From the NCBI GenBank assembly GCA_016211215.1, contig JACQSR010000028.1, forward strand, positions 11,423 to 75,422: 64,000 nt of DNA, written 5' to 3'. Origin of the DNA: Candidatus Woesearchaeota archaeon. Its GTDB lineage: Archaea; Nanobdellota; Nanobdellia; Woesearchaeales; JACQSR01. The notes under the pieces are model-generated. The model ran no database searches. It had not been told where the DNA came from and saw nothing but the letters and a program-made list of their open reading frames with translations. A program made the translations under genes and the position numbers. This document shows positions 18,798 to 43,447 of the stretch, piece after piece (positions within the stretch are counted from its first letter, which is position 1; every line of letters starts with the position of its first letter).

Positions 18798-21107
18798 CTA
18801 CTGAGTAGGATTTTCTACATCAGGAGGTACTGTCACAACCTTAAATTCTTTTTTTGCTACACCTCTTTCTAGTACCTCGCCGTCAATAATACCCCTCAAA
18901 ACAGGAGATATCTGGTCATAATAAGCGTCATTGACAGGGAATCTCCAGCCCCTAAATTTCTGTCTTAAATCTGTACCAGTAGCAGCACTCATTGCAGCAA
19001 CAATAAACGTTTCTCCTTTACCAACCCCAACAGTATCATAAAGATACCAGTAATCAGGATGGAACGCCTTAAAGAACCTTGGATAAACTTCCCAGCCATA
19101 AGGATTAACCGAAGAATCCTCAGCAATCTCAACAAATATACCATCCATGATGTTCGCATCAAATAATTTAGAGTTAGGTTCATGGGGGTCATCAGGATAA
19201 AAGTATCCATTGTTTGTGTAATCATTTAAGTCATTCTTATAACTCTGAAAAGAATCAAACTGATCCATTAATGTATTGGTGGTATCGGCATTAAAACCAT
19301 ATTGACCACTCCTTTCAATTAATTTATTTATACTATACATCCCAAGCAATGTCGCCCAACCTTCTCCATATCTATTCCAATCATATTCATAAAGTCCTGG
19401 GAATTTATCTGAAAATATGTATATCAAAAAGTCATGTCCCAACTCGTGATAAAGAACCCCCCAACGTGGTACATCTGTTCCTTCAACTAACAGACATCCA
19501 AATCCGATATAAATAGGTTGCCCGGCCCACCCACATGCAGGATAATTAAAAACAAATAATTGATTATCATAATCTCCCCAATGATTCGGCATTCCGGTCA
19601 ATTCTTTTTCTATCTCTAAAGCATAATGTGACACTTTGGGTATTTCGTACTTCTCTATTCCTTCTTTATATTTGAAAGTATAATAATCAAGTCTTCCTGG
19701 AAATTGAGCTGTCATTTCATCAGGGAAAACGAAAGCTACTCGTCCATACTTGTAAAGATTTCCCGATACACCCATAATGAAATCATCAACAAGAACATCA
19801 CAACTACTATCAAACCTAGTAATAACAGACCAATCTGAATTATGAGTTTCTGTAAGCAGAGGGAAATTGTTCCAAACCTGATTGCCTTCGATATTTGCAA
19901 TATCAACCCTAGCAGCATTATAACCTAATCGGTTTTGGGTCCTGAAAGAACCTGAACCTTGTGAACCAGATACACTCAAAATCCTCCGCTCACCATCCGG
20001 CCTTAAATTGATACTTTTTGGAGATTCAGAAAAGACATATTTATCCGCATTGATACTGATACCATAGCCGGGTTTGCTATAATCGATACTCAATTCAACA
20101 ACCTCTGTTTGATCTCCGCCAGGAACTTCATTAGAAATGCCTCCCACAAAAAACTTAATTTTAGTGGGATTCCCAATCGCTCCGAGTGGAAGTAACCCGT
20201 ATGCACTACCCCTTATTGAAATTGCCTTTGGTTCAAAATTAGGGACTAATTGACCACTAGTTGGGTAAATTGGAACAGACCAAGATCCCATGTTATACTG
20301 AATGTGAACATTATAGTCCACTCCAATACCATTAAGTGGATTACCCGTATTAGGGTCGTTATCTGCATCAATAAAAAAGATATACCCAAGATAATCTGGC
20401 AATACTGAATTTTCAATATCTGCTCTAACTGTAGTTTTCAATTGCAAAACGTTCCCAACTTGTTTTGCTTCAGAATATAAAATGTCCATATTCCCTTCAT
20501 CAAAGTCTTCTGGATCACCAACAGAAACAATTGGAAACTCAGGGCAACTAACCTCGCAATCTTCAGGGCATGTTCCTGCTAAGCACGGCATCTTACACGC
20601 AGGTATCTGATAAACACATGGAGGACAATAATCTGCTTCTCCCTCCTCGCAAATCCCATTTCCGCAAAAAGGACCGGATTCGCATCTGCATTCCTTAGTG
20701 CATGTTTCCTCATCACCGCAGTAAAACGGAGGAGTAGGGGCAGTAGGGTCGCATTGCTCCGGAGGTGTTACATAGCCATCTCCGCATGCGCACTCTCCAG
20801 AATGAAGTATTTCAACATTTTTGCAGTCTGCTTCGCACTGGTTTCCATATGTTACGCCATCAGAGCCGCAGACCGGCATGTATATTTCAGGGCACGAGCA
20901 AACTTCACATCCTTCATCAACTCCGCCGTCGCAGTTGTCATCAATGCTGTTGCAAACCTCAATAGCGCCAGGGTTAACATCTGGGTTTCTGTCGTCGCAG
21001 TCGATGTTTGAAGGGTAGCCATCTTTGTCAAAGTCGAATACACAGCTTACGATAAATAGAGATATTAGGGCTAGTAATGCTAACAGCAATGCCCTCTTTG
21101 CTCCCAT
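18798..21107 (-). CDS. secreted Cys-rich protein with Kazal-type domain and C-terminal HExxH metallopeptidase-like domain
   Basis: The signal/TM is MGAKRALLLALLALISLFIV. DCDDRNPDVNPGAIEVCNSIDDNCDGGVDEG is a MopE-like metal-binding repeat. CPEIYMPVCGSDGVTYGNQCEADC fits the Kazal pattern, and a later YHELGHDF is an HExxH motif. Confidence 0.7.
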   Translation of the reverse strand: MGAKRALLLALLALISLFIVSCVFDFDKDGYPSNIDCDDRNPDVNPGAIEVCNSIDDNCDGGVDEGCEVCSCPEIYMPVCGSDGVTYGNQCEADCKNVEILHSGECACGDGYVTPPEQCDPTAPTPPFYCGDEETCTKECRCESGPFCGNGICEEGEADYCPPCVYQIPACKMPCLAGTCPEDCEVSCPEFPIVSVGDPEDFDEGNMDILYSEAKQVGNVLQLKTTVRADIENSVLPDYLGYIFFIDADNDPNTGNPLNGIGVDYNVHIQYNMGSWSVPIYPTSGQLVPNFEPKAISIRGSAYGLLPLGAIGNPTKIKFFVGGISNEVPGGDQTEVVELSIDYSKPGYGISINADKYVFSESPKSINLRPDGERRILSVSGSQGSGSFRTQNRLGYNAARVDIANIEGNQVWNNFPLLTETHNSDWSVITRFDSSCDVLVDDFIMGVSGNLYKYGRVAFVFPDEMTAQFPGRLDYYTFKYKEGIEKYEIPKVSHYALEIEKELTGMPNHWGDYDNQLFVFNYPACGWAGQPIYIGFGCLLVEGTDVPRWGVLYHELGHDFLIYIFSDKFPGLYEYDWNRYGEGWATLLGMYSINKLIERSGQYGFNADTTNTLMDQFDSFQSYKNDLNDYTNNGYFYPDDPHEPNSKLFDANIMDGIFVEIAEDSSVNPYGWEVYPRFFKAFHPDYWYLYDTVGVGKGETFIVAAMSAATGTDLRQKFRGWRFPVNDAYYDQISPVLRGIIDGEVLERGVAKKEFKVVTVPPDVENPTQ

Positions 21108-21128: not shown

Positions 21129-21725
21129 CTATAAAAACCTTTTGATTTTCATTCGCTTAAAGACAAACATAATAAGCACTCCAGCAGCGCTCCCCAGCAC
21201 ATTCGCCATTAAGTCAGTCATTGAATCTCCCCATGAGCCGCCCCTCACCTTTTCGCTCCAGTCCCCGCTGCCATAAAAGAAAAAACCGTCTCCCTGGCCC
21301 AGAAGCAGGTAGCTCGTGTATTCTATCATCTCCGTGAACGCTCCCGCCCCAACTGAAATCAGGATTACCACTGCTATGAGGCTCGGCTTTGAAATAGATG
21401 TGCTTTTCTCGAGCACCCTGTAGAACAAAATGGAGGCAACGACAAACGCATAAAAATGCACCACTTTGTCAAACATGATAAATGAAAACTCCCTGCCGTA
21501 AAGGCCGAAGATTCCGGCAGAATGAAGTATGAAAAAGGCATTAAGCGCCGCAGTAAGCGCATAATTCATCCTCACCCTTTCATAAAAGCGCAAAATGAGT
21601 AGGTTAGATATTACGAAAAGAATGTTCTCCGGGATAAACCAATAGTTGCCATTCAGCACCCCATAAAACAGAAAAACCAGCTGGACAAATATGAACACGA
21701 GCACAAGATTTGTTCTTCCTTTCAT
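21129..21725 (-). CDS. polytopic membrane protein (function unknown)
   Basis: Several hydrophobic helices are present. The start is trimmed to ATG 21725 so that it abuts the upstream stop at 21722. Confidence 0.5.
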   Translation of the reverse strand: MKGRTNLVLVFIFVQLVFLFYGVLNGNYWFIPENILFVISNLLILRFYERVRMNYALTAALNAFFILHSAGIFGLYGREFSFIMFDKVVHFYAFVVASILFYRVLEKSTSISKPSLIAVVILISVGAGAFTEMIEYTSYLLLGQGDGFFFYGSGDWSEKVRGGSWGDSMTDLMANVLGSAAGVLIMFVFKRMKIKRFL

Positions 21726-22414
21726 CGTCCGTTGCATTCTTCGGGCTTTTCCCCGTAAGCGCCGCATATCTCCTTTTCAAGCACGTCTTTTTCGGTAAAC
21801 CCCGAGAAGGTTTTCCCGTTCATCACAATCGAAGGGAAAGTTGTGACATTGTAGGTTGTCTTCAGCATGTCAAGCAGCGGCTCATTCTGAAGCGTGTTGT
21901 CAAACGCAAAATTCAGCAGCCTTTCCTTGAACACCTTTTTGAGATATGTAAGAACAAACGCCTGCCCGTCGCACTTCGGGCACTCCTCGGCGTTCGTAAA
22001 AAAGTAGAGCACAGTTGCAACATCCGCACCGCAAAGGTCTTTTGATTTTTTTGCAAGAAGCCAGTACCTCAGCTGCGCATGCAGGTATTCCCTCTTCAGC
22101 AGCAAGAACTCTTCCCTGTTTATCGCAGCATTCTCCTCGTATGACTCAAGCCGTATCCTTATTTTTTCAAGGGATTCCACATTTTCGTTGAATGTTGCGA
22201 GCAATGCGGCGCAGTTGTTTTCCCTCTCAAGCTCGTTTACAATCTCAAACTGGAGCTGGAGGCTTGAAAAATCAAGCGACTGCTGCTTTGCCTGCGACTC
22301 AACAAATGCTACCCTTTTCCCCTCGACCACAAGCCCTAAAAGAACACCCAGCATAAATATTACGGCAGTAATTGCGCCTGCAATGATATAAGTTCGCCTG
22401 CTTATTTCTTTCAT
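21722..22414 (-). CDS. membrane-anchored thioredoxin-fold protein (CPKC)
   Basis: An N-terminal TM is followed by a coiled-coil-like segment and then VLYFFTNAEECPKCDGQ, a CxxC in a thioredoxin/DsbA-like context. Confidence 0.55.
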   Translation of the reverse strand: MKEISRRTYIIAGAITAVIFMLGVLLGLVVEGKRVAFVESQAKQQSLDFSSLQLQFEIVNELERENNCAALLATFNENVESLEKIRIRLESYEENAAINREEFLLLKREYLHAQLRYWLLAKKSKDLCGADVATVLYFFTNAEECPKCDGQAFVLTYLKKVFKERLLNFAFDNTLQNEPLLDMLKTTYNVTTFPSIVMNGKTFSGFTEKDVLEKEICGAYGEKPEECNGR

Positions 22415-22418
22415 CGGA

Positions 22419-23675
22419 TTACCACTTATGCTGCCTGTTTAAAAGTATATCTAAAGCCACTCCCACCCATATGAGGCCGAGCAAAAGAAAATACCCGAGC
22501 ATATACACGAAAACAGGCATTAGGCCATGCCTCATTTCATGCTCCCTCGTAAACTTGTGGGACTTGATAAAAATAAAAATTGAAACTGCAAGCATCGCCA
22601 CGGCCACTAAAATCGTGGAGTAATCCAAATCGAGGAAATAAAAATTCAGTTCGAGTGTTTTTATGAATGTCCAAAAATCGAAATTGACAAACCCCAGGTT
22701 GTAAATGTAGCGGAGACCGGGCTCAAATGTGTAATATAAAAACGAAATGACCAATATAATTGCAATAACCCCGCCACCCATCAAGATGGGCATTTGTATG
22801 AACCCGAAATCGCCGTATTTTTTGTTGAATAGCATTTCCCTGTATTTTACCGAATTGATGACCGCGCCCTTAAACCACCTGTTTCTCTGGCGGTAAAGCG
22901 CCGAAAGTGTTGAAGGCGCTACAGTCGTAACATTTGTGTGCGGCAGCTGTATTATTTTATAGCCTTTCTTCTGCAGCCTGAGCGCCATCTCAAGGTCCTC
23001 GGTTAGGTTCCTGTTTTCGTCAAACCCGCCTACCTCCAGCAGGGACCGCCTGCGGTATATCGAGAAGGGGCCGGGTATCACATGGACGCAGTCAAGCTTG
23101 CCCATCAGCTCTTTGAAGAACATGTTTACCAGATACTCATAGGATTGCAGTTTTTCCAGTAGATTTTTTGGATTTCTTACCTTAAGGACTGGGAGCACCG
23201 CCGCAACTTTTTCATCGCCGAAATAGGGCAGCATTTCAAACAGTGCATTTTTTGTCACATACGAATCAGCATCAAGGCAGACAAAAAACTCTCCTGAAGC
23301 GAACTTGTTGCCTTTGTTCATGGCAGCCCCTTTTCCACCGTTCTTCTGCCTAACAAGTGTAACCGGAAATTTCCTCTTTTTTGTGATAAACTCTTCTACC
23401 AAGGCGTATGTATCATCCTTGCTCCCATCATCAACCACAAAAATCTCGAGTTTGTCAGAGGGATATTTCAGCGACAGCGCGGATTTAAGTGTCTGTATTA
23501 CCCTTTTCTCCTCGTTGTACGCCGGGATTACAATTGAAACATTTGGAGGTGTTTTCATGGAAGGTAGTTTGTGTTTTCCATCTTTTTTTTCAATAAACAC
23601 CAGGAACCAGAATAATGAAAAATAAAGCGCAACAAAATAAGAAACATACAGGATAATCTTTATGGTCCAGTTCAT
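22419..23675 (-). CDS. processive family-2 glycosyltransferase (membrane-integrated)
   Basis: VSIVIPAYNEE, VVDDGSKDDT, CLDADS and QRNRWFKG (the QxxRW motif) are present, with flanking TM helices. A TATA-like GATTTATAAAAT lies about 25 nt upstream. Confidence 0.85.
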   Translation of the reverse strand: MNWTIKIILYVSYFVALYFSLFWFLVFIEKKDGKHKLPSMKTPPNVSIVIPAYNEEKRVIQTLKSALSLKYPSDKLEIFVVDDGSKDDTYALVEEFITKKRKFPVTLVRQKNGGKGAAMNKGNKFASGEFFVCLDADSYVTKNALFEMLPYFGDEKVAAVLPVLKVRNPKNLLEKLQSYEYLVNMFFKELMGKLDCVHVIPGPFSIYRRRSLLEVGGFDENRNLTEDLEMALRLQKKGYKIIQLPHTNVTTVAPSTLSALYRQRNRWFKGAVINSVKYREMLFNKKYGDFGFIQMPILMGGGVIAIILVISFLYYTFEPGLRYIYNLGFVNFDFWTFIKTLELNFYFLDLDYSTILVAVAMLAVSIFIFIKSHKFTREHEMRHGLMPVFVYMLGYFLLLGLIWVGVALDILLNRQHKW

Positions 23676-29039: not shown

Positions 29040-29131
29040 TAAGTATCCCTATATTGCCCATTCTTCAGTTTCGCAAACATTGATAAATTAAATCCCGTTC
29101 CCAAATAGCTATAGCGTTGACAAATAAAGCG

Positions 29132-29800
29132 ATGAAAAGAAGAACCTTTCTGGGAATAGGAATGGGGTTGGCAGCCCTGGCATTTGGCTATTTTAATGCC
29201 CAAAAAAAGAATGAAGGCAGAATAAAGGAGCGGGGCTTGGTTGTTGCTGTAAGCGAGGACAAAAAATCCATGCTTGTCAGAGGCTATGACAGCAAACTCT
29301 ACTCTGCAGCTGAAAATTTCACAGGCGACTGGACCAATCTTACCGAGGGTGACGAGGTAGTTGTTTATGGAACTGACAAGAAAAAAAGCACCGCCACCGG
29401 TTATTTGCCGGGCAATTTCAAGGTTGACGGCCCGGTTGTCGAAGTTGACCTTTACGCCCTTGAAATCAAGCGCTCCAGAAAAACTGAACTGCAGAAGGAT
29501 AATCTAAAAAGCTTCGGAGATTTTACTTATGAAGATAACCTTGAAGTAAAGCTGGAGCAAGGCAGGCACACACTTGACATTTGGTCTTACAGTGTTAAGT
29601 ATGGCGAGGGCGCCTCTTACATAGCAGACAGATTCAACATCGAAGACAAAGAATCTGGCGATTTAAGGCTGAATGCAACAATATCCGATGTGTACTTATT
29701 CCTCGCGGATTCCCGGGGAGCAAAAAAGCTTGTGCCTGTCGAATTTAATGCGCTGAAGCCAGGCGATGTTGTTTATGTGGTTCCAAAGCCGCCTCAGTAA
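29132..29800 (+). CDS. secreted hypothetical protein with Tat-like signal
   Basis: MKRRTFLGIGMGLAALAFGYFNAQ carries the twin-arginine RRxFLG. ATG 29132 is preferred over TTG 29117. Confidence 0.5.
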   Translation: MKRRTFLGIGMGLAALAFGYFNAQKKNEGRIKERGLVVAVSEDKKSMLVRGYDSKLYSAAENFTGDWTNLTEGDEVVVYGTDKKKSTATGYLPGNFKVDGPVVEVDLYALEIKRSRKTELQKDNLKSFGDFTYEDNLEVKLEQGRHTLDIWSYSVKYGEGASYIADRFNIEDKESGDLRLNATISDVYLFLADSRGAKKLVPVEFNALKPGDVVYVVPKPPQ

Positions 29801-30831
29801 TTCATCTTATACCTCAAAATAGCTCCAATTCCCCCCAACCCATCAAGCCTCTTGCCGCCGTCATGCTCCGAAGAAATGAGATGCACTTTCCCGTTCATCG
29901 AGTCAACCGTTTTCATAATCCCGTCTATGCCTGTATAATTTTTTTCTTCCCTGAATTTTTTGATTAGTCCATCCGTCACAAGAAGAATCTCAACAGCGCC
30001 GGATTCCGCAACTCCTTTCACTTCCTTAAAGCCGTACGCAGCCTTTCCGTCCTTTGAAATCTCCCCGAGAAGGTTCTCGACCATGTTCATCTCCTGCGTA
30101 GTCCTGTCTTCCTTCATCACGTTCTGTATCTCCTTTCGCTTCAGGATTTCGCTTATCGCAGACTTTCCAACAGACGAGCATGTTGCAAGCGTGATTTTCT
30201 TCCTTAATTCCTCGTTCTTTATCACCTTCATCATCTCGTCCTTCCAGAAAGCCGGAGAAGCAAGTATTATGTGGTCTATCCTCTGCCTGGAGCTTATCTC
30301 CTCCAGCTTTTTTGCAATCTCCCCGAAGAAGTTTCCTGAAACGCGCTCCTCCATGCCCTTCTTCTCCACATTGCCTTCCAGGTGCGCGATTACCTCGTGC
30401 CCCGACCTCTTCATTATCGCAAGATAGCATTCCTCCCTGTCGAAGGCGCATATGAGCACAGGCATTTCCTTTGCCCTGCACGCCTCTTTGACTTTCTCGA
30501 GCTGGAATGAAAGCCATTTTTCCTTGATTATGGTTATCGGGGAGTTTTCCTCCACGCTGAACGAGTGGTGGATTCCCTTCGGAATGTCTTCGGTGCCCTC
30601 TGAAACCGTGCCAAGAATCCTCAATGTGTCAGAAAGCTCAGCCTTCTCTACGATTATTGAAAGAAACACCGGCTTCCTTACCGCACCTTCCCCAACCTTA
30701 ATCTTCCTCAGCGTCCTGCCCTGTACAATATCCCCGGCGTCAATTACCTGGCTCAGGCACCATAAGTCGTCCTTGTTTTCCGGCTTCAGCTTCAGCTCTC
30801 CCCCCTTGAGGTTGGAATAAACTTGAATCAT
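29794..30831 (-). CDS. pelA: Pelota/Dom34 mRNA surveillance protein
   Basis: MIQVYSNLKGGELKLKPENKDDLWCLSQVIDAGDIVQGRT... shows eRF1-like domains. The start is trimmed to ATG 30831, downstream of TTTATATATAAA. Confidence 0.9.
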   Translation of the reverse strand: MIQVYSNLKGGELKLKPENKDDLWCLSQVIDAGDIVQGRTLRKIKVGEGAVRKPVFLSIIVEKAELSDTLRILGTVSEGTEDIPKGIHHSFSVEENSPITIIKEKWLSFQLEKVKEACRAKEMPVLICAFDREECYLAIMKRSGHEVIAHLEGNVEKKGMEERVSGNFFGEIAKKLEEISSRQRIDHIILASPAFWKDEMMKVIKNEELRKKITLATCSSVGKSAISEILKRKEIQNVMKEDRTTQEMNMVENLLGEISKDGKAAYGFKEVKGVAESGAVEILLVTDGLIKKFREEKNYTGIDGIMKTVDSMNGKVHLISSEHDGGKRLDGLGGIGAILRYKMNY

Positions 30832-30911
30832 CGAATAAAAAGGAAAACATTTATATATAAACTTAATCCTTGTAGACTTGGATTTTAATAGAGGCAAAAA
30901 TAGGTGAACCC

Positions 30912-32102
30912 TTGACAAAAAGAGGACAGGGAGGCATTAACGCTGCAATCTTGGTTGCTATAATTTTCGGCCTGATACTTCTCTACATACTTGCCATCCC
31001 CCAAAAGGACCGTGATGTGATTTTGGATGGAAATTCAGGCACGACAACCATAGTGTCATCCGGGAGCTCCGCCAATACCACCTTGCTCAAGGAGGCAGTT
31101 GGCACCATTGAAGACCGCGATTTGGACAAGGGCGAGCACGACATACCTTCCTTTACACTCTTCCAGACAGCAGGCGCAAAGGTTCTTAAAAAAGTCCCGT
31201 CCTTCCAGGTCAGGAACGGCATTTTCGATTTCAGTCCCCGCGAAGTGAGGTTTTCCACTCCAGACGCAAGCCTGACGAGCAATGTTCTGCTCTCATTTTC
31301 AGTAAGCAAGGCCCAGGGCACATTAATCATCAAGCTTAACGGCAACAATATATTTGAGGGCGGCTTGGAAGGCTCTGCCCCGCAGCCAATCTCTCTTTCA
31401 AAGGAAGACCTTAAGGACGAAAACGTGCTTGAGTTCTCAGTTTCCGGAGTTGGCTGGAAGTTCTGGACCACAAACCAGTACCAGGTTGACGAGTTCCTGA
31501 TTACCGCAGACATTTCAGACAAGAGCAGGCAGTCTTCCAGGTCAGTTTTCTTCGTCAGCAGGAAGGAATTTGACAATCTGGAGACTTCATCATTCAGGTT
31601 CAACCCGGAGTGCAGCCCCTCAAATGTAGGCATCCTTGATGTTCAGCTCAACTCAAGACCTTTGTTTTCAGGCGTTCCTGACTGCGGAACCGTAAACAAG
31701 GTTGAGTTTCCGCCAACTCTTCTTGAGCCGGGGGAGAACGTCATCGGGTTCACGACCACCAAAGGCACATACCTGATAGACCAGGTGCAGGTTAAGACCG
31801 AGCTTGTCAAGGAAGTTTTCCCAATTTTTTACTTTGATGTGAACGAGACTGTATTCAGCGACATAACCAACAAGACAGTTGATGCAAGTGTGGAACTTGA
31901 CTTTGTGGATGACGACAACACCAAGCGCCTCGACCTTAACATCAACGGCCATCTTACAAATGTTGACCAGAAGAAGCCTACATTTTCAAGGAAGATTACC
32001 AGCTGGATTGAGGAAGGAAACAACTACATAGAGATACGGCCAAAGACGCGGGTAAACATCGTTGAGTTGAGGGTAATCCTCGAAGAAATCGAGGAAGAGT
32101 AG
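30912..32102 (+). CDS. surface protein with pilin-like / signal-anchor N-terminus, first gene of five-gene operon
   Basis: The TTG start is preceded by the SD AGGTGA. The N-terminus is MTKRGQGGINAAILVAIIFGLILLYILAI. The body shows three internal repeats of an L-x-[IVL]-x-[LI]-N-[GS]...G-x-N-[VY]-[LI]-[EG]-[FI] pattern. Confidence 0.6.
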   Translation: MTKRGQGGINAAILVAIIFGLILLYILAIPQKDRDVILDGNSGTTTIVSSGSSANTTLLKEAVGTIEDRDLDKGEHDIPSFTLFQTAGAKVLKKVPSFQVRNGIFDFSPREVRFSTPDASLTSNVLLSFSVSKAQGTLIIKLNGNNIFEGGLEGSAPQPISLSKEDLKDENVLEFSVSGVGWKFWTTNQYQVDEFLITADISDKSRQSSRSVFFVSRKEFDNLETSSFRFNPECSPSNVGILDVQLNSRPLFSGVPDCGTVNKVEFPPTLLEPGENVIGFTTTKGTYLIDQVQVKTELVKEVFPIFYFDVNETVFSDITNKTVDASVELDFVDDDNTKRLDLNINGHLTNVDQKKPTFSRKITSWIEEGNNYIEIRPKTRVNIVELRVILEEIEEE

Positions 32103-32126
32103 GAATTCTGGACTATAGGAGAAAAT

Positions 32127-34553
32127 ATGGCTGATGATAAAACAAGTGGAAGTTCTGAAAGCGGCAAAAAGGATGATGAAAAAGTGCATTCTGAAGAGGA
32201 GGAAAAAAGGCTTAGAAAAAGCGTTAAAGAATCTCTAAAAGAATATTTCCCGACATTTTCAGCTGCCCCGGGGAAAGTAAACGCCGCCCTAAAAACAGAT
32301 GTTTCCCCTTATATGAAGAGCTTTTACGAGAGGCTTCTGAAAAAAGAGGAATTTGGCGGAGAGGAGAAGAAAAGCATTTTTGTATCGCTTCTTGCCTTAG
32401 CCCTTTTTGTACTTGTTTTTTCTTTGGATTTTTCTGGAAGGTTTTCATGGAGTTTTTACATTAGATTCCTGATATACCTTGTTCTGAGCGCAATCCTGTT
32501 CTTGGTTCTACTTGCAAAATCCAAAATGGACGATAGAAAAAAGGCCTCGTATGTTCTAATACTTTTCATTTACTCGCTGCTGCTTCCAACATTTTTTGGA
32601 TTTATTCAGCAGTATTTCGGCTTTGTTGGTCTAACCTCTATCGCGATAATCCTTCTGCTTCCATTAGGGCCCGTAATTTTCTTGGAAAAAGTAGATTTTA
32701 TGCACCCAAAAATAAAGAGTTTTATTGTCTTTTTTTATGCGCTTGTAATGATACTGCTTTTAGTGCCTTATATTAGCAATATAACGAACCTAACTGCAGT
32801 AGACCATCTGTTCAACACCCTTTCTCAGTATGCCCCGCAAGTGTCTCCTAAAGACGGGTTGGAGAGTTGGTTAGGTGCAGTAGACAAAATGAAAGAAAAC
32901 GCAAAGAAAAGCTGGATGCGCCAAATCAACTACGCCACCGGCGGCTATTACAACGGAGTTGTTGAGGAAAATGAAAAGGAGCCGCTTGGCGTCTATCTCG
33001 AAGGCATTAAGCCAACCGAAAAGCAGTTTTTCATGAACGAGCCGGTAAGCGTCTGGGGAACGTTAAAGGCAAAGAACCTTGACACGGATAATCCCATAAT
33101 CATCAATCTGTTCTGCTCGGGAAAGCACGGCAAGAATGAAGTTTTCGGCAGCATAAACCCCGATGAGATTCCAGACGAATATTCCGGGGAAAGCAGCCCT
33201 GAATTTGAGAAAAATGACCAGGACCTTGAAGTGTACTATCTCGACGAAAAAGACATTCAATGCGACTTCAAGGAAGGCCAGCTTGACAAGGGCTCATCCC
33301 AGGTTGCAGTTAACGCAGTCTTCAACTTCCAGACACTTTCATACCTGAAAACTTATTTCATGAACCTTGAAACCCTGCGCACCCTGAACCGTGAAAACAT
33401 TGACCCGTTCAGCCAGTACGGAATTACGGAAAAAAATCCGCAGGCAGTGTTCACAAACGGCCCTGTAAAGATTGGCATGGAGCTTAGAAATCCGCCTATA
33501 GGCATAAGCCCCGATTCAGACACAAAAGTACGGCTCGGAATCACAGTTGAAAACCGATGGGAAGGCGAAATCAGGCAGCTCAGGAGGCTTGTGGTTTATC
33601 TCCCCGAAGGAATGGAACCCGACGAGACCTGCGATATTTTTGAGGAAGATACGGACCCAAAACCAGAAGACCTTGGGTTGAGAAATGAATTGGACAGAAG
33701 AACGTACAAGGCATATAAGCTGAAAGAGATTGAATCAAATCCAAGCTACAGGGACATAAAGGAATTCGTTTCCGTTGTTTGCTTCCTCAAAATACCTTCC
33801 GACGGCATAGAAACATTGCTCGCGGAATCCCCGTTCTCGACGCGCTACATACGCGCAACGGCGGAATATGACTACAACCTCAAAAAAGAGGTTGCCGTGC
33901 GCATAGAGCCGCCAAAGGGATTTTTCATGCAGATATCGCCGGCAAAGGCAACTTCTGCAGACAGCCTGAATTGCGAGGTTTCAAACTCAGACTTCAAGAT
34001 AAAAGTCAATAAATTCGAATTCAAGGTTGATGACCAAGATGCAATAACCCCTGCAAAAACCTGCGATAGCGATGGAAAGAAGTGCTCCATCACCCTGCAG
34101 CCCCAAAAGAAAGGGAGCAAAGTAACATGCACAGTTAATGCTGAAAGGTACACGGATATAGTCGAGGATGTAATCGAATCAGGCCTCGACACAAATGCAT
34201 TCGATACATACAAGGACTCAGTTGAAATGATAGTTGGTAATTCATTGCCTGTCTTTAGGGGATTGGCTTTTGAAAAGGTGGATGCTGCCTGGTTTTGCAA
34301 GGCAAAGGTTGAAGATAAAGACGAAGATGATTCAGTCTCCCTGAATTACAGGTTTGAGGGCGACATAAACAGCAACGGCAAAGAGGTAAGCTGCAGTAAA
34401 AGTGGAGAGTTATGGGAGTGCATGGCTCCATTGCCTTCAGAGGACATTGACGGAAAGCGCACCACGTGCAAGGCAAGGGCTTTTGATGGCTATTCATTCG
34501 GAAAGGAAGCCTCAGTTTCTCACTCATTTCCATTGACAGGAGGCTCAACATGA
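32127..34553 (+). CDS. polytopic membrane protein with large ectodomain (contains one copy of the module found in the three downstream lipoproteins)
   Basis: A charged N-terminus is followed by about 6 hydrophobic helices (residues about 85-225) and then a roughly 580-aa hydrophilic region. Motifs in that region (NGPVKIGMEL, ITVENRWEGEI, AEYDYNL) parallel the downstream paralogs. Confidence 0.7.
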   Translation: MADDKTSGSSESGKKDDEKVHSEEEEKRLRKSVKESLKEYFPTFSAAPGKVNAALKTDVSPYMKSFYERLLKKEEFGGEEKKSIFVSLLALALFVLVFSLDFSGRFSWSFYIRFLIYLVLSAILFLVLLAKSKMDDRKKASYVLILFIYSLLLPTFFGFIQQYFGFVGLTSIAIILLLPLGPVIFLEKVDFMHPKIKSFIVFFYALVMILLLVPYISNITNLTAVDHLFNTLSQYAPQVSPKDGLESWLGAVDKMKENAKKSWMRQINYATGGYYNGVVEENEKEPLGVYLEGIKPTEKQFFMNEPVSVWGTLKAKNLDTDNPIIINLFCSGKHGKNEVFGSINPDEIPDEYSGESSPEFEKNDQDLEVYYLDEKDIQCDFKEGQLDKGSSQVAVNAVFNFQTLSYLKTYFMNLETLRTLNRENIDPFSQYGITEKNPQAVFTNGPVKIGMELRNPPIGISPDSDTKVRLGITVENRWEGEIRQLRRLVVYLPEGMEPDETCDIFEEDTDPKPEDLGLRNELDRRTYKAYKLKEIESNPSYRDIKEFVSVVCFLKIPSDGIETLLAESPFSTRYIRATAEYDYNLKKEVAVRIEPPKGFFMQISPAKATSADSLNCEVSNSDFKIKVNKFEFKVDDQDAITPAKTCDSDGKKCSITLQPQKKGSKVTCTVNAERYTDIVEDVIESGLDTNAFDTYKDSVEMIVGNSLPVFRGLAFEKVDAAWFCKAKVEDKDEDDSVSLNYRFEGDINSNGKEVSCSKSGELWECMAPLPSEDIDGKRTTCKARAFDGYSFGKEASVSHSFPLTGGST

Positions 34554-35515
34554 GGAAGTGGATTTTGCTTCTTGCAGTTTTTCTTGCGGCATGCACGACT
34601 AAGCCTTCATTCACAAGTGAGAATGTCTACGTCGGAACTGACGGAGTATCTTTGGCTTTCACAAAAAATTCCCCCCCTGCAGAAGTTTTTGAGAACAGCA
34701 TTTTTCCAGTCGGCATTGAAATCTGGAACAAGGGCGCATACAACGTTGAAGAAGGCTATGCCCTTGTCAATCTGGACCAGGACTACATGGAGCCGGGAGA
34801 ATTTACCGGGAGCACTTCTATTTTTCCTTCAGATGCATCAAAGCTTGATTTCCAGCTCATGGGAAAATCTGAAATAAGCCAGCAGGGCGACAGGGACACA
34901 ATAGGGCTTACCGTGCTCACAAAGCCAATAGACATCTTGAGCGAAAAGCACACCTCAACGGTTTCTGTAATGGCATGCTACCGCTATCAGACATTCGCAT
35001 CGCCTAATGTATGCATAGACACCGACCCTTTCGGCATAAGGGAGAATAAAAAATCCTGCACGGTATCTGACATTCCCCTGACAGGCGGCCAGGGAGCCCC
35101 AGTTGCAGTAACCAAAGTCGAGGTTAAGATGCTTCCGTCAAAATCACAGGACAAGGTTGTTTCCCAATTCAGGATTTATGTCAAGAACATGGGCAACGGA
35201 CAGGTTGTTGACGCCTCAAAAGTAGCCGATGCATGCTCATCCGAAGGTCTCACAAAATCGGACATAAACTCGGTTTCTGTAAGCGCGCAGCTCTCAAACG
35301 GAATTGTCTTGGACTGCATACCAAAGCGCGAGGGTAATGGCGGCTTGGAGGGCTACCTGCGGCTTAAGGGAGAGGATTATGTCCTGTGCAATTACGAGGA
35401 AGGAGTTCCGATGGAGCTTGGCACATTCAAGACTACGCTTAACATAGCCCTCGATTACGGCTATATGCACTCAATATCCAAAGACGTAACAATCAGGAAA
35501 AGCGCAGTTATATGA
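34550..35515 (+). CDS. lipobox protein, paralog 1 of 3
   Basis: MRKWILLLAVFLAAC has the lipobox L-A-A-C, and the start forms an ATGA overlap with the upstream gene. Shared motifs are VCIDTDP, SCTV, GAPVAVT, KNMGNGQV and LDYGY. Confidence 0.7.
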   Translation: MRKWILLLAVFLAACTTKPSFTSENVYVGTDGVSLAFTKNSPPAEVFENSIFPVGIEIWNKGAYNVEEGYALVNLDQDYMEPGEFTGSTSIFPSDASKLDFQLMGKSEISQQGDRDTIGLTVLTKPIDILSEKHTSTVSVMACYRYQTFASPNVCIDTDPFGIRENKKSCTVSDIPLTGGQGAPVAVTKVEVKMLPSKSQDKVVSQFRIYVKNMGNGQVVDASKVADACSSEGLTKSDINSVSVSAQLSNGIVLDCIPKREGNGGLEGYLRLKGEDYVLCNYEEGVPMELGTFKTTLNIALDYGYMHSISKDVTIRKSAVI

Positions 35516-35552
35516 GTAAAATTTATAAGATGCTGATGGAAAGGGAGCTATA

Positions 35553-36524
35553 ATGGAGCAAAAGAGGGTATTTTTAGGTGTTCTTGTAATAGTCTCGCTG
35601 CTTATAATCGGCTGCAGCGGCTCTAAGGGAAACCAGCCAACTGCAGTTGAATTCAGGACCGGCTCCAGTGGCCTTGATGTAACCTTCCCGTCAGGAACGC
35701 CCCAGCAGATTTTTGAGAATGACATTGACGTCAGGATTCCGATTCAGGTGGAAAACAAAGGCGCATTCCCCCAGTTTGACGAGCTTTCCGAATTCACCGG
35801 CTTCCTGTGGGTTGGAGGCTATGACCCGAATATTCTGCAGGCATCTTTCGAGCAGGGCGACATAAGGAAGCAGCTCGACCCTGAAGAGCTCGAAGGCAGA
35901 AGCTCTTTCAACCAGCAGGGCGGCGTTGTATTGGAGTCCCTGATTTTAAGCGTTGGAGACCTTCCGTTGGGGACTGCAGTTTACGAGCCAACCCTTATCT
36001 TTTACCTTACCTATCTTTACAAATCAATTGCATCAGTTCCCGTATGCATAGACCCGGAGCCAAGAAGCATAAATGTAAAGGACAAGGTTTGCAGCCTTAC
36101 CGACTTCAGGAAAATATATTCAGTTGCGCCTCAGGGAGGTCCTGTTGGAATTACAAACGTCGAGGAGATTATTACCTCCAATCAGATTATCTTCAAGTTT
36201 GACCTCCAGAATTTCGGCACCGGCCAGGTTATTGCACGCGACCTTGTGTCATCAAACCCCAACGAGGGCTTTGACTGGCGAGACCTTAATCGTGTGCAGA
36301 TAGAGGATGTCCGCCTCGGCGACAGGTCCGTTGACAAGTGCAAGCCGGATTTGGGTGAGGAGGTCGAGCTTTTCCAGGGAATAGGGCATTTCCAGTGCAC
36401 CCTCTCTGTTGCCTCAATTGCGTCTGCCCAGGCTTACACCACACCCCTGACGGTAACGCTTACATATGGATACGCCCAATCCCAATTTAGAAATATTAAA
36501 ATACTAGAGGCAATCGAGATTTGA
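35553..36524 (+). CDS. lipobox protein, paralog 2 of 3
   Basis: ...VSLLIIGCSG has the lipobox I-I-G-C, and the SD is GGAAAGGGAG. Shared motifs are VCIDPEP, VCSL, GGPVGIT, QNFGTGQV and LTYGY. Confidence 0.7.
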   Translation: MEQKRVFLGVLVIVSLLIIGCSGSKGNQPTAVEFRTGSSGLDVTFPSGTPQQIFENDIDVRIPIQVENKGAFPQFDELSEFTGFLWVGGYDPNILQASFEQGDIRKQLDPEELEGRSSFNQQGGVVLESLILSVGDLPLGTAVYEPTLIFYLTYLYKSIASVPVCIDPEPRSINVKDKVCSLTDFRKIYSVAPQGGPVGITNVEEIITSNQIIFKFDLQNFGTGQVIARDLVSSNPNEGFDWRDLNRVQIEDVRLGDRSVDKCKPDLGEEVELFQGIGHFQCTLSVASIASAQAYTTPLTVTLTYGYAQSQFRNIKILEAIEI

Positions 36525-36540
36525 GAAAGGAGGGTTTCAC

Positions 36541-37488
36541 ATGACGAGAAAGGTAATAATTGCTTTATCGGTTATCATTATGCTTGCTGTTGTTGGGTGC
36601 GCCCAGAATACAACACCCGGAAGCAGCGCTTCTACACCATTCATCGGCGGCGTTATAGGCCTTGAAATGGGATTTGTCGAATCAGCCCCCCCAAAAGAGG
36701 TATTCGATGGCGGCGACTTCTCATTTGATACTGAAGTCAGGCTAAACAATGTAGGTGAGGCATTTGTCAAGAAAGAAGATGTCTTTGTAAAGATTTCCGG
36801 CATAGACCCTTCCGAGTTCAGCAAGACTGCCTCTCAGCTGGTAAAGAACCCGGATGACGACCTTGAGTCCACAAAGAAAGATGCGGACGGCGCAATAATA
36901 GAAGGCACCGAAACATTTGTTTCGTTCCCTGATTTCAACCACAAGAGCCAGCTCAGCGGAAACACTCCATTCACGTTCCGAGCAGATGTGTGCTACAAAT
37001 ACAAGACAATCGCAAATGCAAAGGCCTGCTACAAGGAAGACCTCCTCGACACAACTGACACAAACGTGTGCACTGTTAACGGGGACAAGACTGCCTATAA
37101 TTCAGGCGCGCCAGTAGCTATAACCTCTTTCAAGGAGCAGGCGAGCGGTAAGGACAAGGTTTCATTTGTATTCACCGTTGAGCACGTTGGAAGCGGGAAT
37201 GTTTTCAAGCTTAGCCAGAAATGCGACGACACCGTGCGCGCAAACGAGGACAGGGTTCTTGTAAAGATTGACACCGGTCTTCCAGGTCTTAGCTGCTCAG
37301 GGCTTTCAGACGGAAGCGATACATCCGGCTATGTCACCCTTCACAGCGGAAAAAGGGTAATCAGGTGCACCCAGACATTAAGCGAAAGTGACCGGACTGA
37401 TTTTGAGAAAGTGGTAATAATAGACCTTGATTATGATTACGAGGAGTTTATCGAGACCGGAGTCCTGGTAAAGCACGCAGGCAGCTGA
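36541..37488 (+). CDS. lipobox protein, paralog 3 of 3
   Basis: ...IMLAVVGCAQ has the lipobox V-V-G-C, and the SD is AAGGAGGG. Shared motifs are VCTV, GAPVAIT, EHVGSGNV and LDYDY. Confidence 0.7.
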   Translation: MTRKVIIALSVIIMLAVVGCAQNTTPGSSASTPFIGGVIGLEMGFVESAPPKEVFDGGDFSFDTEVRLNNVGEAFVKKEDVFVKISGIDPSEFSKTASQLVKNPDDDLESTKKDADGAIIEGTETFVSFPDFNHKSQLSGNTPFTFRADVCYKYKTIANAKACYKEDLLDTTDTNVCTVNGDKTAYNSGAPVAITSFKEQASGKDKVSFVFTVEHVGSGNVFKLSQKCDDTVRANEDRVLVKIDTGLPGLSCSGLSDGSDTSGYVTLHSGKRVIRCTQTLSESDRTDFEKVVIIDLDYDYEEFIETGVLVKHAGS

Positions 37489-38445
37489 TCATTTTCCGGA
37501 AGCCAACGCAAAGGAAGCCAGCAGCGCCTCCAGCTGTATAAACTCATCGCTCCCTTCAGTCATCCTGAACTCGGCTTCCCCCGTCTTTTCCATAAGCCCC
37601 ATCTTTGCCTTGTCAGGTATGTCCAGATTTAGTATTTCGCTTTGTATGTGCCGTATAATGTCAAGCCCTGAAAAGCCGTAGTTAAGCATTACATCGAGCA
37701 GCATTTTCCTTGCCCCTATGAAATCGTTTTTCACCGCAAGCTCAAGTATTTTCCTTATCTCCTTTGGCTTTGCTATTGATGCAACGGAAAACACCATCTC
37801 TTCTGTAATCTTGGAACCCATAGCCGCACAGCTCTGCATCAGGTTTTCAAGCCTTCTGACATCACCTTCCGAAGCCTCGCAAATTGCCGTTTTTGCATTC
37901 TCGTCAATCTTAAGGCCTTCATTTACGGCAATCTTGCCTATGATACCCATTATCTCTTCCCTTTCCAATGGTTTAAAGCGGAATATTGCGCATCTCGACT
38001 GTATCGGGTCCAATATTTTTGATGAGTAGTTGCAGCTGAGGATGAATCTGCATGTTTGAGTATAATTTTCCATTGTCCTGCGCAACGCCTGCTGGGCATC
38101 CCTTGTAAGCTGGTCGCATTCGTCCAAATAGATAATCTTGAACGGCACATCGCCTATCGCCCTTGTCCTTGCAAAATCCTTGACTTTCACCCTGATTACA
38201 TCAATCCCGCGCTCATCCGACGCATTCAGCTCCAGAAAATTCTGCTTCCATTCATCTCCAAAGAACGCGCGTGCAATCACCAGTGCAGTTGATGTCTTTC
38301 CGGTTCCCGCAGGCCCCGCAAAAAGCAGGTGAGGCATGTTCTTCTGCTCCACAAAAGCCCTTATCCTTGGAATGAGATGCCTCTGCCCAACAATATCATT
38401 GAAATCCCTTGGGCGGTACTTCTCTATCCATATCGATTCTGCCAT
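37489..38445 (-). CDS. rfcS: replication factor C small subunit
   Basis: WIEKYRPRDFNDIVGQ, Walker A GPAGTGKTS, DECD and SRC (SRCAIFRF) are present. Confidence 0.93.
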   Translation of the reverse strand: MAESIWIEKYRPRDFNDIVGQRHLIPRIRAFVEQKNMPHLLFAGPAGTGKTSTALVIARAFFGDEWKQNFLELNASDERGIDVIRVKVKDFARTRAIGDVPFKIIYLDECDQLTRDAQQALRRTMENYTQTCRFILSCNYSSKILDPIQSRCAIFRFKPLEREEIMGIIGKIAVNEGLKIDENAKTAICEASEGDVRRLENLMQSCAAMGSKITEEMVFSVASIAKPKEIRKILELAVKNDFIGARKMLLDVMLNYGFSGLDIIRHIQSEILNLDIPDKAKMGLMEKTGEAEFRMTEGSDEFIQLEALLASFALASGK

Positions 38446-42938: not shown

Positions 42939-43187
42939 CTATTGCTCATCCTTATGGTACAAATCCAAAAAGATTACTTTATTCTCCGGTTTTAAGTACG
43001 CATAAGATATCCTGAATGGTTTGACGTAAACCTCCCGGGTGCCTTTTCTCGAATACCTCATTGGCTTGCCTGTTTCAGGTGATTCGATTATCTTTGCAAT
43101 TTGCTTCTTCACCCTTTCCCTGAGCCCATTATCCTTTATTTTTCCAATGTTCTTCAGGAAATCCGGGGGGTATACTACTTCTAGCAT
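42939..43187 (-). CDS. relE: RelE/ParE-family toxin
   Basis: The 82-aa protein contains ...KKQIAKIIESPETGKPMRYSRKGTREVYVKPFRISYAY...VIFLDLYHKDEQ. It overlaps the upstream antitoxin gene by 7 nt. Confidence 0.75.
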   Translation of the reverse strand: MLEVVYPPDFLKNIGKIKDNGLRERVKKQIAKIIESPETGKPMRYSRKGTREVYVKPFRISYAYLKPENKVIFLDLYHKDEQ

Positions 43188-43447
43188 TTAGAAAGCCTTT
43201 CAAGAAATTTGACGGCAGGCATAGATACGAATTCTCCTTTCTCGTAGCTTTTCCACGCATCCTCTGTTCTTTTCGCAAACTCAAAATCTTTTTCAAAATT
43301 CTTGTCCGCTTTGGTGGCCTTCTTTAGAATAATCTGGTCTTTGTTTTGTATTACGAGTATTTTATCCCCTTCATGCAAATCATCCCTCATTCCAGCAGGA
43401 ATAACCACCTGTCCCCTCGAACTCATCCTTGTTATTGCAACTTCCAT
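43181..43447 (-). CDS. AbrB/SpoVT-family antitoxin
   Basis: SSRGQVVIPAGMRDDLHEGDKILV is the AbrB swapped-hairpin motif. Confidence 0.75.
   Translation of the reverse strand: MEVAITRMSSRGQVVIPAGMRDDLHEGDKILVIQNKDQIILKKATKADKNFEKDFEFAKRTEDAWKSYEKGEFVSMPAVKFLERLSKC

Follow-up and report, generated by a model that had tools for sequence, protein, structure and literature searches.

A conserved five-gene surface module of Woesearchaeales whose membrane subunit carries peptidoglycan hydrolases in many orthologs: a possible platform for contact with bacterial walls

The 64,000-nt stretch of Candidatus Woesearchaeota archaeon contig JACQSR010000028.1 analyzed here (the window), part of a metagenome-assembled genome (MAG), contains five adjacent genes at positions 30,912 to 37,488. 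They encode a protein with a prepilin-type N-terminus (G1), a polytopic membrane protein (G2) and three paralogous lipoproteins named by position (LIP-A, LIP-B and LIP-C). We found that these genes form an order-wide conserved block seated between pelota and the gene for the replication factor C (RFC) small subunit, and that every recognizable enzyme domain on G2 orthologs belongs to a peptidoglycan-hydrolase family. We tentatively favor, with somewhat less than even confidence, the view that the products make up a heteromeric, membrane-tethered surface platform for contact with bacterial murein. Woesearchaeota-type DPANN are among the most widespread uncultured archaea, and their lineage-specific genes are mostly labelled 'hypothetical', as are the three database entries identical to proteins of the window (HY638_04665, HY638_04670 and HY638_04675). 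Five hypothetical genes thereby become a defined, conserved module with structurally predictable subunits, whose only enzymatic additions are bacterial wall hydrolases.

The order of the five genes proved to be conserved in related genomes. Synteny was scored with hidden Markov models (HMMs) in 85 loci, and downstream order was counted in the 47 loci extending at least 8 kb past G1 (long loci). Pelota was found directly upstream of G1 on the opposite strand in 65 of 73 loci. The canonical order is pelota(-), G1, G2, LIP, LIP, LIP, RFC-small(-), and its G1-to-RFC part was present in 35 of the 47 long loci; three others had the same G1-G2-3xLIP order without a detected RFC. Four LIP matches, one of them a split gene, were seen in 3/47, two LIPs in 4/47, and a single LIP or no detectable G2 in one locus each. 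Overall, G2 was accompanied by at least three LIPs in 41 long loci, and RFC closed the block in 38. Median pairwise identities over 33 canonical loci were 69.9 % for RFC and 53.9 % for pelota, compared with 42.5 % for G1, the best conserved of the five subunits, 35.5 % for LIP-C, 33.4 % for LIP-B, 33.0 % for LIP-A and 29.4 % for G2.

Searches of a 5.8-billion-protein collection returned 144 homologs of the LIP family, 46 of G2 and 149 of G1 (40-70 % identity), with source names, where given, of Woesearchaeota, Nanoarchaeota or Nanoarchaeia. When GTDB species representatives were scanned with one G1 peptide pattern, G1 was identified in 154 of them, all Woesearchaeota/Nanoarchaeia-type MAGs, and a G2 profile recovered 903 clusters (50 % identity) at E<=1e-30. 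Each of the five has conserved homologs, at E values down to 1e-250, and they are therefore real genes and not chance open reading frames (ORFs). Contamination or a horizontally transferred island was ruled out by a GC content equal to that of the surroundings and by order-wide synteny with core genes. Many of the block-bearing GTDB records (loci L007-L009, L015, L019 and others) are titled 'uncultured Methanosarcinales archaeon' (binchicken assemblies), probably as placeholder labels. One bin named 'Candidatus Aminicenantes bacterium' (L073) has pelota beside G1, which suggests an archaeal contig mis-binned with a bacterium.

The only direct functional clue to this module came from fusions of murein hydrolases to G2 orthologs, a feature missing from the first-pass annotation of this DNA, which a model had made from the sequence alone. 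The payload domains sit directly C-terminal to a conserved ectodomain core, in a tail that measures 0-676 aa (median 199 aa) across orthologs. In three partly overlapping sets totalling 207 orthologs, with organism labels as given by depositors, all recognizable enzyme domains were of peptidoglycan-hydrolase families and occurred in ~30-40 % of proteins. Such domains were detected in 19 of 59 species-level orthologs (SLT in 15, GH73 glucosaminidase in 4) and in 18 of 46 metagenomic homologs (SLT, Peptidase_M23, Amidase_3 or NlpC/P60, at times two per protein). A further 102 cluster representatives, a set that may be enriched in SLT, gave SLT in 41, with Amidase_2, NlpC/P60 and Lysozyme_like matched once each. 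The seven families (SLT lytic transglycosylase, GH73, lysozyme-like, M23, the MurNAc-L-Ala amidases Amidase_2 and Amidase_3, and NlpC/P60) are all annotated as peptidoglycan hydrolases. The other payloads were non-catalytic beta-modules (fn3, PKD, beta/gamma-crystallin, Inhibitor_I36 and an Ig domain), apart from single weak matches to DUF6442 and Gaa1.

Judged from these domain sequences, hydrolase families must have been recruited repeatedly onto G2, and the restriction of its enzymatic payloads to hydrolases indicates a predicted position of the G2 distal end at bacterial peptidoglycan. Murein is made by bacteria, and among archaea, to our knowledge, only the Methanobacteria and Methanopyri, with their pseudomurein, produce a wall polymer of this kind; the substrate is therefore most likely bacterial and foreign. 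Remodelling of the archaeon's own wall by the G2 hydrolases was set aside on the same ground. SLT proteins of Woesearchaeota and Pacearchaeota have previously been proposed to act against bacterial walls (PMC8204110, PMC9723730, PMC12352652), in reports that cover neither the operon nor the partner subunits of G2 nor its conserved core.

Hydrolases on a surface protein could also serve nutrition, with the complex capturing and degrading free peptidoglycan or glycan debris (necromass) instead of making cell contact. The G2 payloads would suit such foraging, as would the lectin- or carbohydrate-binding module (CBM)-like domains of G1 described below. In addition, related DPANN encode muropeptide-processing enzymes, and scavenging of bacterial amino acids has been proposed for them (PMC11537232). 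However, there is no transporter, permease or catabolic gene in the operon or within ±10 kb, most G2 orthologs carry no enzyme, and tethering every component would be needless for scavenging soluble polymers. We consider this explanation improbable.

The first-pass annotation had been unable to place any of the five products in a named family, and this held: Pfam and NCBIfam scans of all five were empty, with no match to S-layer families. Searches against PDB sequences, whether by individual protein or by LIP profile, returned only noise, and separate scans of the G2 core and the G2 tail gave no match. The likenesses found were confined to generic immunoglobulin (Ig)-like and jelly-roll folds, which were obtained from AlphaFold2 (AF2) models made for two of the proteins, LIP-A and G1. 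Profile-profile comparison gave no signal of kinship between G1 and the LIP family.

G2 begins with an 83-aa charged N-terminus, followed by five hydrophobic helices, the ectodomain core and a 210-aa Cys-rich tail, with a predicted N-in/C-out topology. About six transmembrane (TM) helices and an ectodomain of roughly 580 aa had been proposed earlier; the large ectodomain was borne out (~590 aa), and the number of helices was reduced to the five found by Kyte-Doolittle analysis. The TM region is poorly conserved, with only D97 and P179 nearly invariant; the invariant positions, all of them in the core, are G288, C330, C379, G445, P446, W478, G480, Y581 and Y583. Cys counts are even in all ectodomains. 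No PilC/FlaJ platform likeness of G2 was detected in Pfam/NCBIfam profile searches.

A relationship between the G2 core and the lipoproteins was suggested by hhalign, which aligned G2 aa 277-598 onto LIP aa 44-320 over 237 collinear columns (P=0.0098). Three motif pairs are co-aligned: A.FNF.T.AYLK.YFMD with AtaCY.Y.T.a...VCID, lGITleN.W.GkI with F.i.I.N.G.G.V, and a.Y.Y.leks..V.V with LdYgY..sis..v.I. Weak HMM-to-sequence matches between the LIP family and the G2 core recur at the same site in many members. The G2 core is thus a probable fourth, TM-anchored copy of the LIP double-Ig module, on the strength of these alignments, and one that the first-pass annotation did not mention.

The products of genes 3-5 are tandem paralogs, as had been proposed (BLASTP 1e-19 for LIP-A/LIP-B and 3e-13 for LIP-A/LIP-C), and each has a lipobox: LAAC in LIP-A (C15), IIGC in LIP-B (C21) and VVGC in LIP-C (C20). 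Using the criterion of a Sec-type signal peptide ending in [LVI][ASTVI][GAS]C, from which lipidation itself is predicted, we found a lipobox after a hydrophobic stretch in 105 of 105 triplet members (35/35 per position) and in 115 of 121 family members. Lipidation of the Cys is AliA/AliB-dependent in Haloferax. Lipobox proteins and the lipidation enzyme AliA have been reported in DPANN (PMC12462473).

In 35 clean triplets, the best cross-species match of a LIP was the protein at the same position in 99.5 % (position 1), 98 % (position 2) and 95 % (position 3) of cases. Identity was 34-38 % within a position and 24-28 % between paralogs. This pattern implies that the triplication is older than the radiation of the group and that each copy has since been kept. 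The comparisons show the LIPs to be ancient, position-specific paralogs that, by their sequences, are not interchangeable; retention of distinct copies is what one would expect for distinct subunits of one assembly.

The LIP-A model (pLDDT 94.4, pTM 0.88) is all-beta, with two Ig-like beta-sandwiches. Foldseek against the PDB returned tandem Ig-like modules, among them integrin alpha thigh/calf (5.7e-7), the CEP192 SPD-2 domain, transglutaminase C-terminal domains, cohesin-FN3, MSCRAMM adhesins and RbmA. These matches are generic, with global TM-scores <=0.26 and identities of 8-12 %. As modelled, LIP is a generic adhesin or scaffold architecture of no specific known family. The possibility that the LIPs are ABC substrate-binding proteins was ruled out by the all-beta model, by the lack of substrate-binding-protein matches in Pfam/NCBIfam and by the lack of permease or ATPase genes nearby.

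Several loci depart from the canonical block. In one subclade (L021, L022, L054 and L060, about 13.7-20 kb in each), pelota, G1 and G2 are followed by two LIPs, RFC is not adjacent, and co-directional ORFs of 274-331 aa come next that have no LIP HMM match even at E<=10; the third subunit may have been replaced or have diverged highly. In L008 (11644-14400), a 918-aa ORF with no G2 HMM match occupies the G2 slot between G1 and three LIPs; this is a G2 that has diverged strongly or else an unrelated protein in its place. L052 and L074 have four LIP genes. Enlarged LIPs of 679-1028 aa occur at L024:15478-18561, L027:14526-16991 and L048:14450-16486, one with a C-terminal fn3 and the others with no recognizable domain. 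When oversized LIP and G1 variants were scanned for telling fusions, only fn3 and sub-threshold CBM/sialidase-N-like matches were found.

G1 had been described as pilin-like, in that a hydrophobic helix follows its short charged N-terminus. The N-terminus and helix were confirmed (MTKRG/QGGINAAILVAIIFGLILLYILAIP, the slash marking the predicted cleavage site), and the signal motif supports the comparison with pilins; the modelled fold does not. The N-terminal consensus is MKKAQGG.NAAILVAIIA.LIILYILFLP..ER. The motif [KR][GAS]Q is present in 103 of 110 G1 sequences and Q at +1 in 108, Y25 is invariant, and A11, A12, L14, V15, I22, Y25, L29, P30 and R34 are conserved columns. This N-terminus matches the archaeal class III (prepilin-type) signal pattern, with cleavage as a prediction. 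In the AF2 model (pLDDT 84.8, pTM 0.44), whose domains are confident and whose mutual domain orientation is not, a helix at 9-28 and a short helix at 31-38 lead through a disordered linker (40-53, pLDDT<50) to three independent jelly rolls.

Foldseek matched G1 to accessory domains of GH35 beta-galactosidases (6e-8) and carbohydrate-binding domains of BcsB (3e-6), and also to reelin repeats, a rhamnosidase CBM and PNGase. These are likenesses of a generic fold, with TM-scores <=0.26 over whole chains. A viral structure library likewise returned only generic jelly rolls (F5/8-type-C, PA14, CUB and phage tail/baseplate). The most conserved stretch is the loop SVSGVG.KFW.TNEY (aa 176-190), in which F184 and W185 are invariant; N171, D203, C234 and C258 are invariant as well. 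This loop looks like a sugar-binding site. That G1 is nearly as conserved as pelota would fit a universally conserved ligand or partner.

The prepilin-type signal raises the alternative of a type IV pilus- or bindosome-like structure, in which G1 would be processed by prepilin peptidase and polymerized or inserted by machinery encoded elsewhere, with G2 and the LIPs as accessories. The [KR][GAS]/Q motif with its invariant Q+1 and the unusually conserved N-terminal helix are consistent with this proposal, and Sulfolobus sugar-binding proteins with class III signals provide a precedent. It is opposed by the absence of an assembly ATPase, platform protein or prepilin peptidase from the operon and its conserved flanks, by a G1 model of short helix, linker and independent jelly rolls with no pilin head, and by the negative PilC/FlaJ searches with G2. 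Genes for an assembly ATPase (PilB/FlaI-like) or platform (PilC/FlaJ-like) were found neither within ±10 kb nor in four other loci. We consider such a structure very improbable. A true type IV pilin was ruled out by the fold, which has no head packed on alpha-1, and by the neighborhood; the signal motif itself is real.

Taken as a whole, the module suits the proposal of the first-pass annotation, a surface apparatus that serves adhesion, contact with a host or scaffolding of the envelope, given the all-beta adhesin- and lectin-like folds, the three kinds of tether and the payloads of orthologs. The accompanying statement that it is not a transporter was corroborated by the lack of an ATPase or permease within ±10 kb. 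Neither finding that the annotation had named as speaking against its reading, a confident placement in characterized families or a lack of conserved gene order, was obtained. The terms 'self-contained' and 'complex' are best read as interpretation. We infer that the five genes encode subunits of one extracellular platform, a candidate hallmark of Woesearchaeota-type DPANN.

In the contact platform that we favor, four LIP-type modules and G1 would together form a base close to the membrane, each in a fixed number of copies. G1, with its prepilin-type helix in the membrane, would project three lectin/CBM-like jelly rolls on a flexible linker. Its ligand would be a conserved glycan, for which the glycan backbone of bacterial murein is the most plausible candidate. 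Such binding would place the distal end of G2 on the wall of a neighboring bacterium, where it could adhere to the sacculus. A G2 with a hydrolase could in addition open the sacculus locally. The archaeon would in this way be able to attach to bacterial partners, feed on them or breach them. In the organism of the window, whose G2 tail is Cys-rich with no recognizable domain, the platform would adhere rather than digest. The order-wide block, the fixed LIP positions, the lipobox and prepilin-type tethers, the folds and the murein payloads all argue for this platform.

A stronger version holds that the module is an ancient, order-wide five-subunit contact machine by which Woesearchaeota dock through a murein-binding G1 and breach the sacculus with interchangeable G2 hydrolases. 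We regard this version as rather unlikely. If true, it would be the first defined inter-domain contact machine of DPANN, and the principal partners or prey of this very abundant order would be bacteria, not archaea.

Several observations weigh against the contact platform. Since ~60-70 % of G2 orthologs have no recognizable hydrolase and ~15 % have no tail at all, murein cleavage cannot be the core function. The G2 of the window itself yielded no hydrolase domain, even at E<=10 on its tail (Pfam and PDB sequence searches), and SLT may be overrepresented among the 102 cluster representatives because the query profile was built partly from SLT carriers. The homology between the G2 core and the LIPs rests on P~0.01 and motif collinearity, and the fold matches are generic over whole chains, as noted above. 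We found no demonstrated bacterial host for any Woesearchaeales in the searchable literature, nor a cultivated Woesearchaeales host or expression data. Finally, a housekeeping role in the envelope would account equally well for the universality of the module, for its fixed place next to housekeeping genes on both sides and for the strong conservation of G1.

This last point leads to the main rival, an S-layer-like or pseudo-periplasmic housekeeping lattice in which G2 is an outward carrier onto which some lineages graft antibacterial or foraging enzymes. An order-wide module with fixed stoichiometric gene order, seated between pelota and RFC, would be expected of such a scaffold, as would a G1 nearly as conserved as pelota and G2 proteins free of payload or, as in the window, of any enzyme. 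Its lipid and TM anchoring and Ig-like composition likewise recall known archaeal surface-layer proteins. However, no S-layer Pfam family was matched, N-glycosylation sequons are few (0-3 per protein), and a set of five subunits including three short-tethered lipoproteins is unlike known S-layers of one or two proteins. Enzyme payloads limited to murein, from seven families, point to bacterial walls, which an outermost layer would also face. We regard the envelope lattice as possible and on balance doubtful. If it is correct, the order would gain in the five products its first candidates for wall proteins.

Among known systems, two groups of hydrolases resemble the proposed murein-contact platform. 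SLT (GH23) proteins reported from Woesearchaeota (2021, fam00969 in Module 98; Vigneron et al. 2022) come from the same organisms, are membrane-bound or extracellular and were read as binding or degrading bacterial walls. Those reports concern single proteins defined by SLT, whereas here SLT is an optional addition to a core of five TM helices and a LIP-like module in a five-gene operon. SLT-bearing G2 orthologs are very likely among the reported proteins, and fam00969 may correspond to the G2 family.

The second group is that of the hydrolases of bacterial envelope machines, namely VirB1/PrgK/TraG in type IV secretion, FlgJ in flagella and EtgA in type III secretion, which use SLT, GH73, M23 and NlpC/P60/CHAP domains. 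In PrgK-type proteins, a TM anchor bears two or three hydrolase domains of different kinds. Like G2, these proteins tether the same catalytic families to a membrane complex for local action on murein. In contrast, they open the wall of their producer, whereas the target of G2 would be foreign, and the operon has no accompanying ATPase, secretin or channel components.

Other likenesses concern single subunits. In the Sulfolobus bindosome, as proposed for G1, large globular glycan-binding proteins have a prepilin-type signal and anchor in place of a classical signal peptide, but they are ABC-type alpha/beta substrate-binding proteins served by Bas ATPase/platform genes and ABC transporters, whereas G1 is all-beta and has none of these nearby. 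Archaeal S-layer and lipid-anchored glycoproteins, for example those of Haloferax, have in common with the module tandem Ig-like sandwiches, lipid or TM anchoring and lineage-wide presence; the module differs in being a five-subunit heteromeric set with few sequons and no detected sequence relation. BcsB, the periplasmic subunit of bacterial cellulose synthase and one of the best Foldseek matches of G1, likewise combines a single-helix anchor with tandem jelly rolls of carbohydrate-binding type. In BcsB, however, the anchor is C-terminal, flavodoxin-like domains are interleaved and the gene is encoded with BcsA, none of which applies to G1 with its N-terminal anchor. A role for G1 as a BcsB-like partner of a glycan synthase was rejected: the likeness ends at the jelly rolls, the conserved block includes no glycosyltransferase gene, and no glycosyltransferase family 2 gene is found among the called genes of four loci in three other species. 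The LIP model finds its best structural matches in Gram-positive MSCRAMM adhesins and integrin alpha legs, which have tandem Ig-like sandwiches as well; this is a generic fold likeness only (TM <=0.26, 8-12 % identity), and anchoring and domain number differ.

In the searchable literature we found no earlier account of the operon. The combination of a lectin-like subunit bearing a class III signal, three lipoproteins that are paralogs, and a polytopic anchor whose murein hydrolases are exchangeable matches no known system and appears to be new as a system, although its Ig-like and jelly-roll building blocks are common and its function is a proposal. The pelota-RFC block can serve as a genomic marker, and the payload of G2 may be readable as an indicator of lifestyle.

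Coordinates of the module, its parts and its flanks are given in Table 1. The five co-directional genes were returned identically by an independent call on the same contig, and their spacings of 24, -4 (an ATGA overlap), 37 and 16 nt agreed with those first given. Purine-rich Shine-Dalgarno (SD)-like motifs could be read directly before all five (AGGTGA, TAGGAGA, AGGAGG, GGAAAGGGAG and AAGGAGGG). Pelota starts at an ATG at 30831 (345 aa, gene call), which leaves an 80-nt divergent spacer. Of the TATA-rich promoter first proposed to be shared with pelota, the TATA-like element was read in this spacer, and its function as a promoter is presumed. On the other side, the convergent RFC gene adjoins the stop codon of the fifth gene.

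Table 1. Features of the five-gene module and its flanks in the window (aa, amino acids)
Feature	Position	Strand	Details
G1	30912-32102	+	396 aa, TTG start
G1 N-terminus, MTKRG/QGG motif and conserved hydrophobic helix (aa 1-30)	30912-31001	+	column statistics, AF2 helix 9-28
G1 ectodomain, three beta-sandwiches (aa ~56-215, 223-298, 305-392)	31077-32087	+	AF2 secondary structure, pLDDT
G2	32127-34553	+	808 aa
G2 TM region, 5 predicted helices (aa 84-216)	32376-32774	+	Kyte-Doolittle and positive-inside rule
G2 conserved ectodomain core (aa 263-598)	32913-33920	+	invariant columns, hhalign
G2 variable C-terminal tail (aa 599-808)	33921-34550	+	Cys-rich, no recognizable domain
LIP-A (position-1 lipoprotein paralog)	34550-35515	+	321 aa
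LIP-B (position-2 paralog)	35553-36524	+	323 aa
LIP-C (position-3 paralog)	36541-37488	+	315 aa
Pelota, divergent upstream flank	29794-30831	-	Pfam Pelota_N/eRF1_2/eRF1_3 on called gene
80-nt divergent spacer pelota/G1	30832-30911		TATA-like TTTATATATAA 30850-30860, AGGTGA SD 30902-30907
RFC small subunit, convergent downstream flank, zero spacer	37489-38445	-	Pfam AAA/Rep_fac_C

Other genes of the window deserve brief mention. Beyond pelota, 29117-29800 (+) encodes a product of 227 aa that has no family match and starts with a twin-arginine-like segment (MKRRTFLGIGMGLAALAFG); at the corresponding site, four loci of three other species lack it and carry acetyl-CoA synthetase or V-ATPase genes instead. 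A processive-type glycosyltransferase family 2 (GT2) gene with chitin-synthase-like matches lies 7 kb upstream of G1 (21129-23675, -), followed by two small genes, one for a DUF2238 membrane protein. No GT2 gene was present among the called genes of the same four loci, and that of the window is therefore probably unrelated to the module. A 1688-aa ORF with no Pfam match (10506-15572, -) is a giant orphan and possibly another surface protein. The 769-aa product of 18798-21107 (-) combines a MopE-type Cu-binding motif with Kazal protease-inhibitor domains, a pairing unusual for an archaeon, of domains that usually occur in secreted proteins. Finally, weak Pfam matches point to a small ParE-toxin/MazE-antitoxin-like pair at ~42939-43447 (-) (L086:18390-18898).

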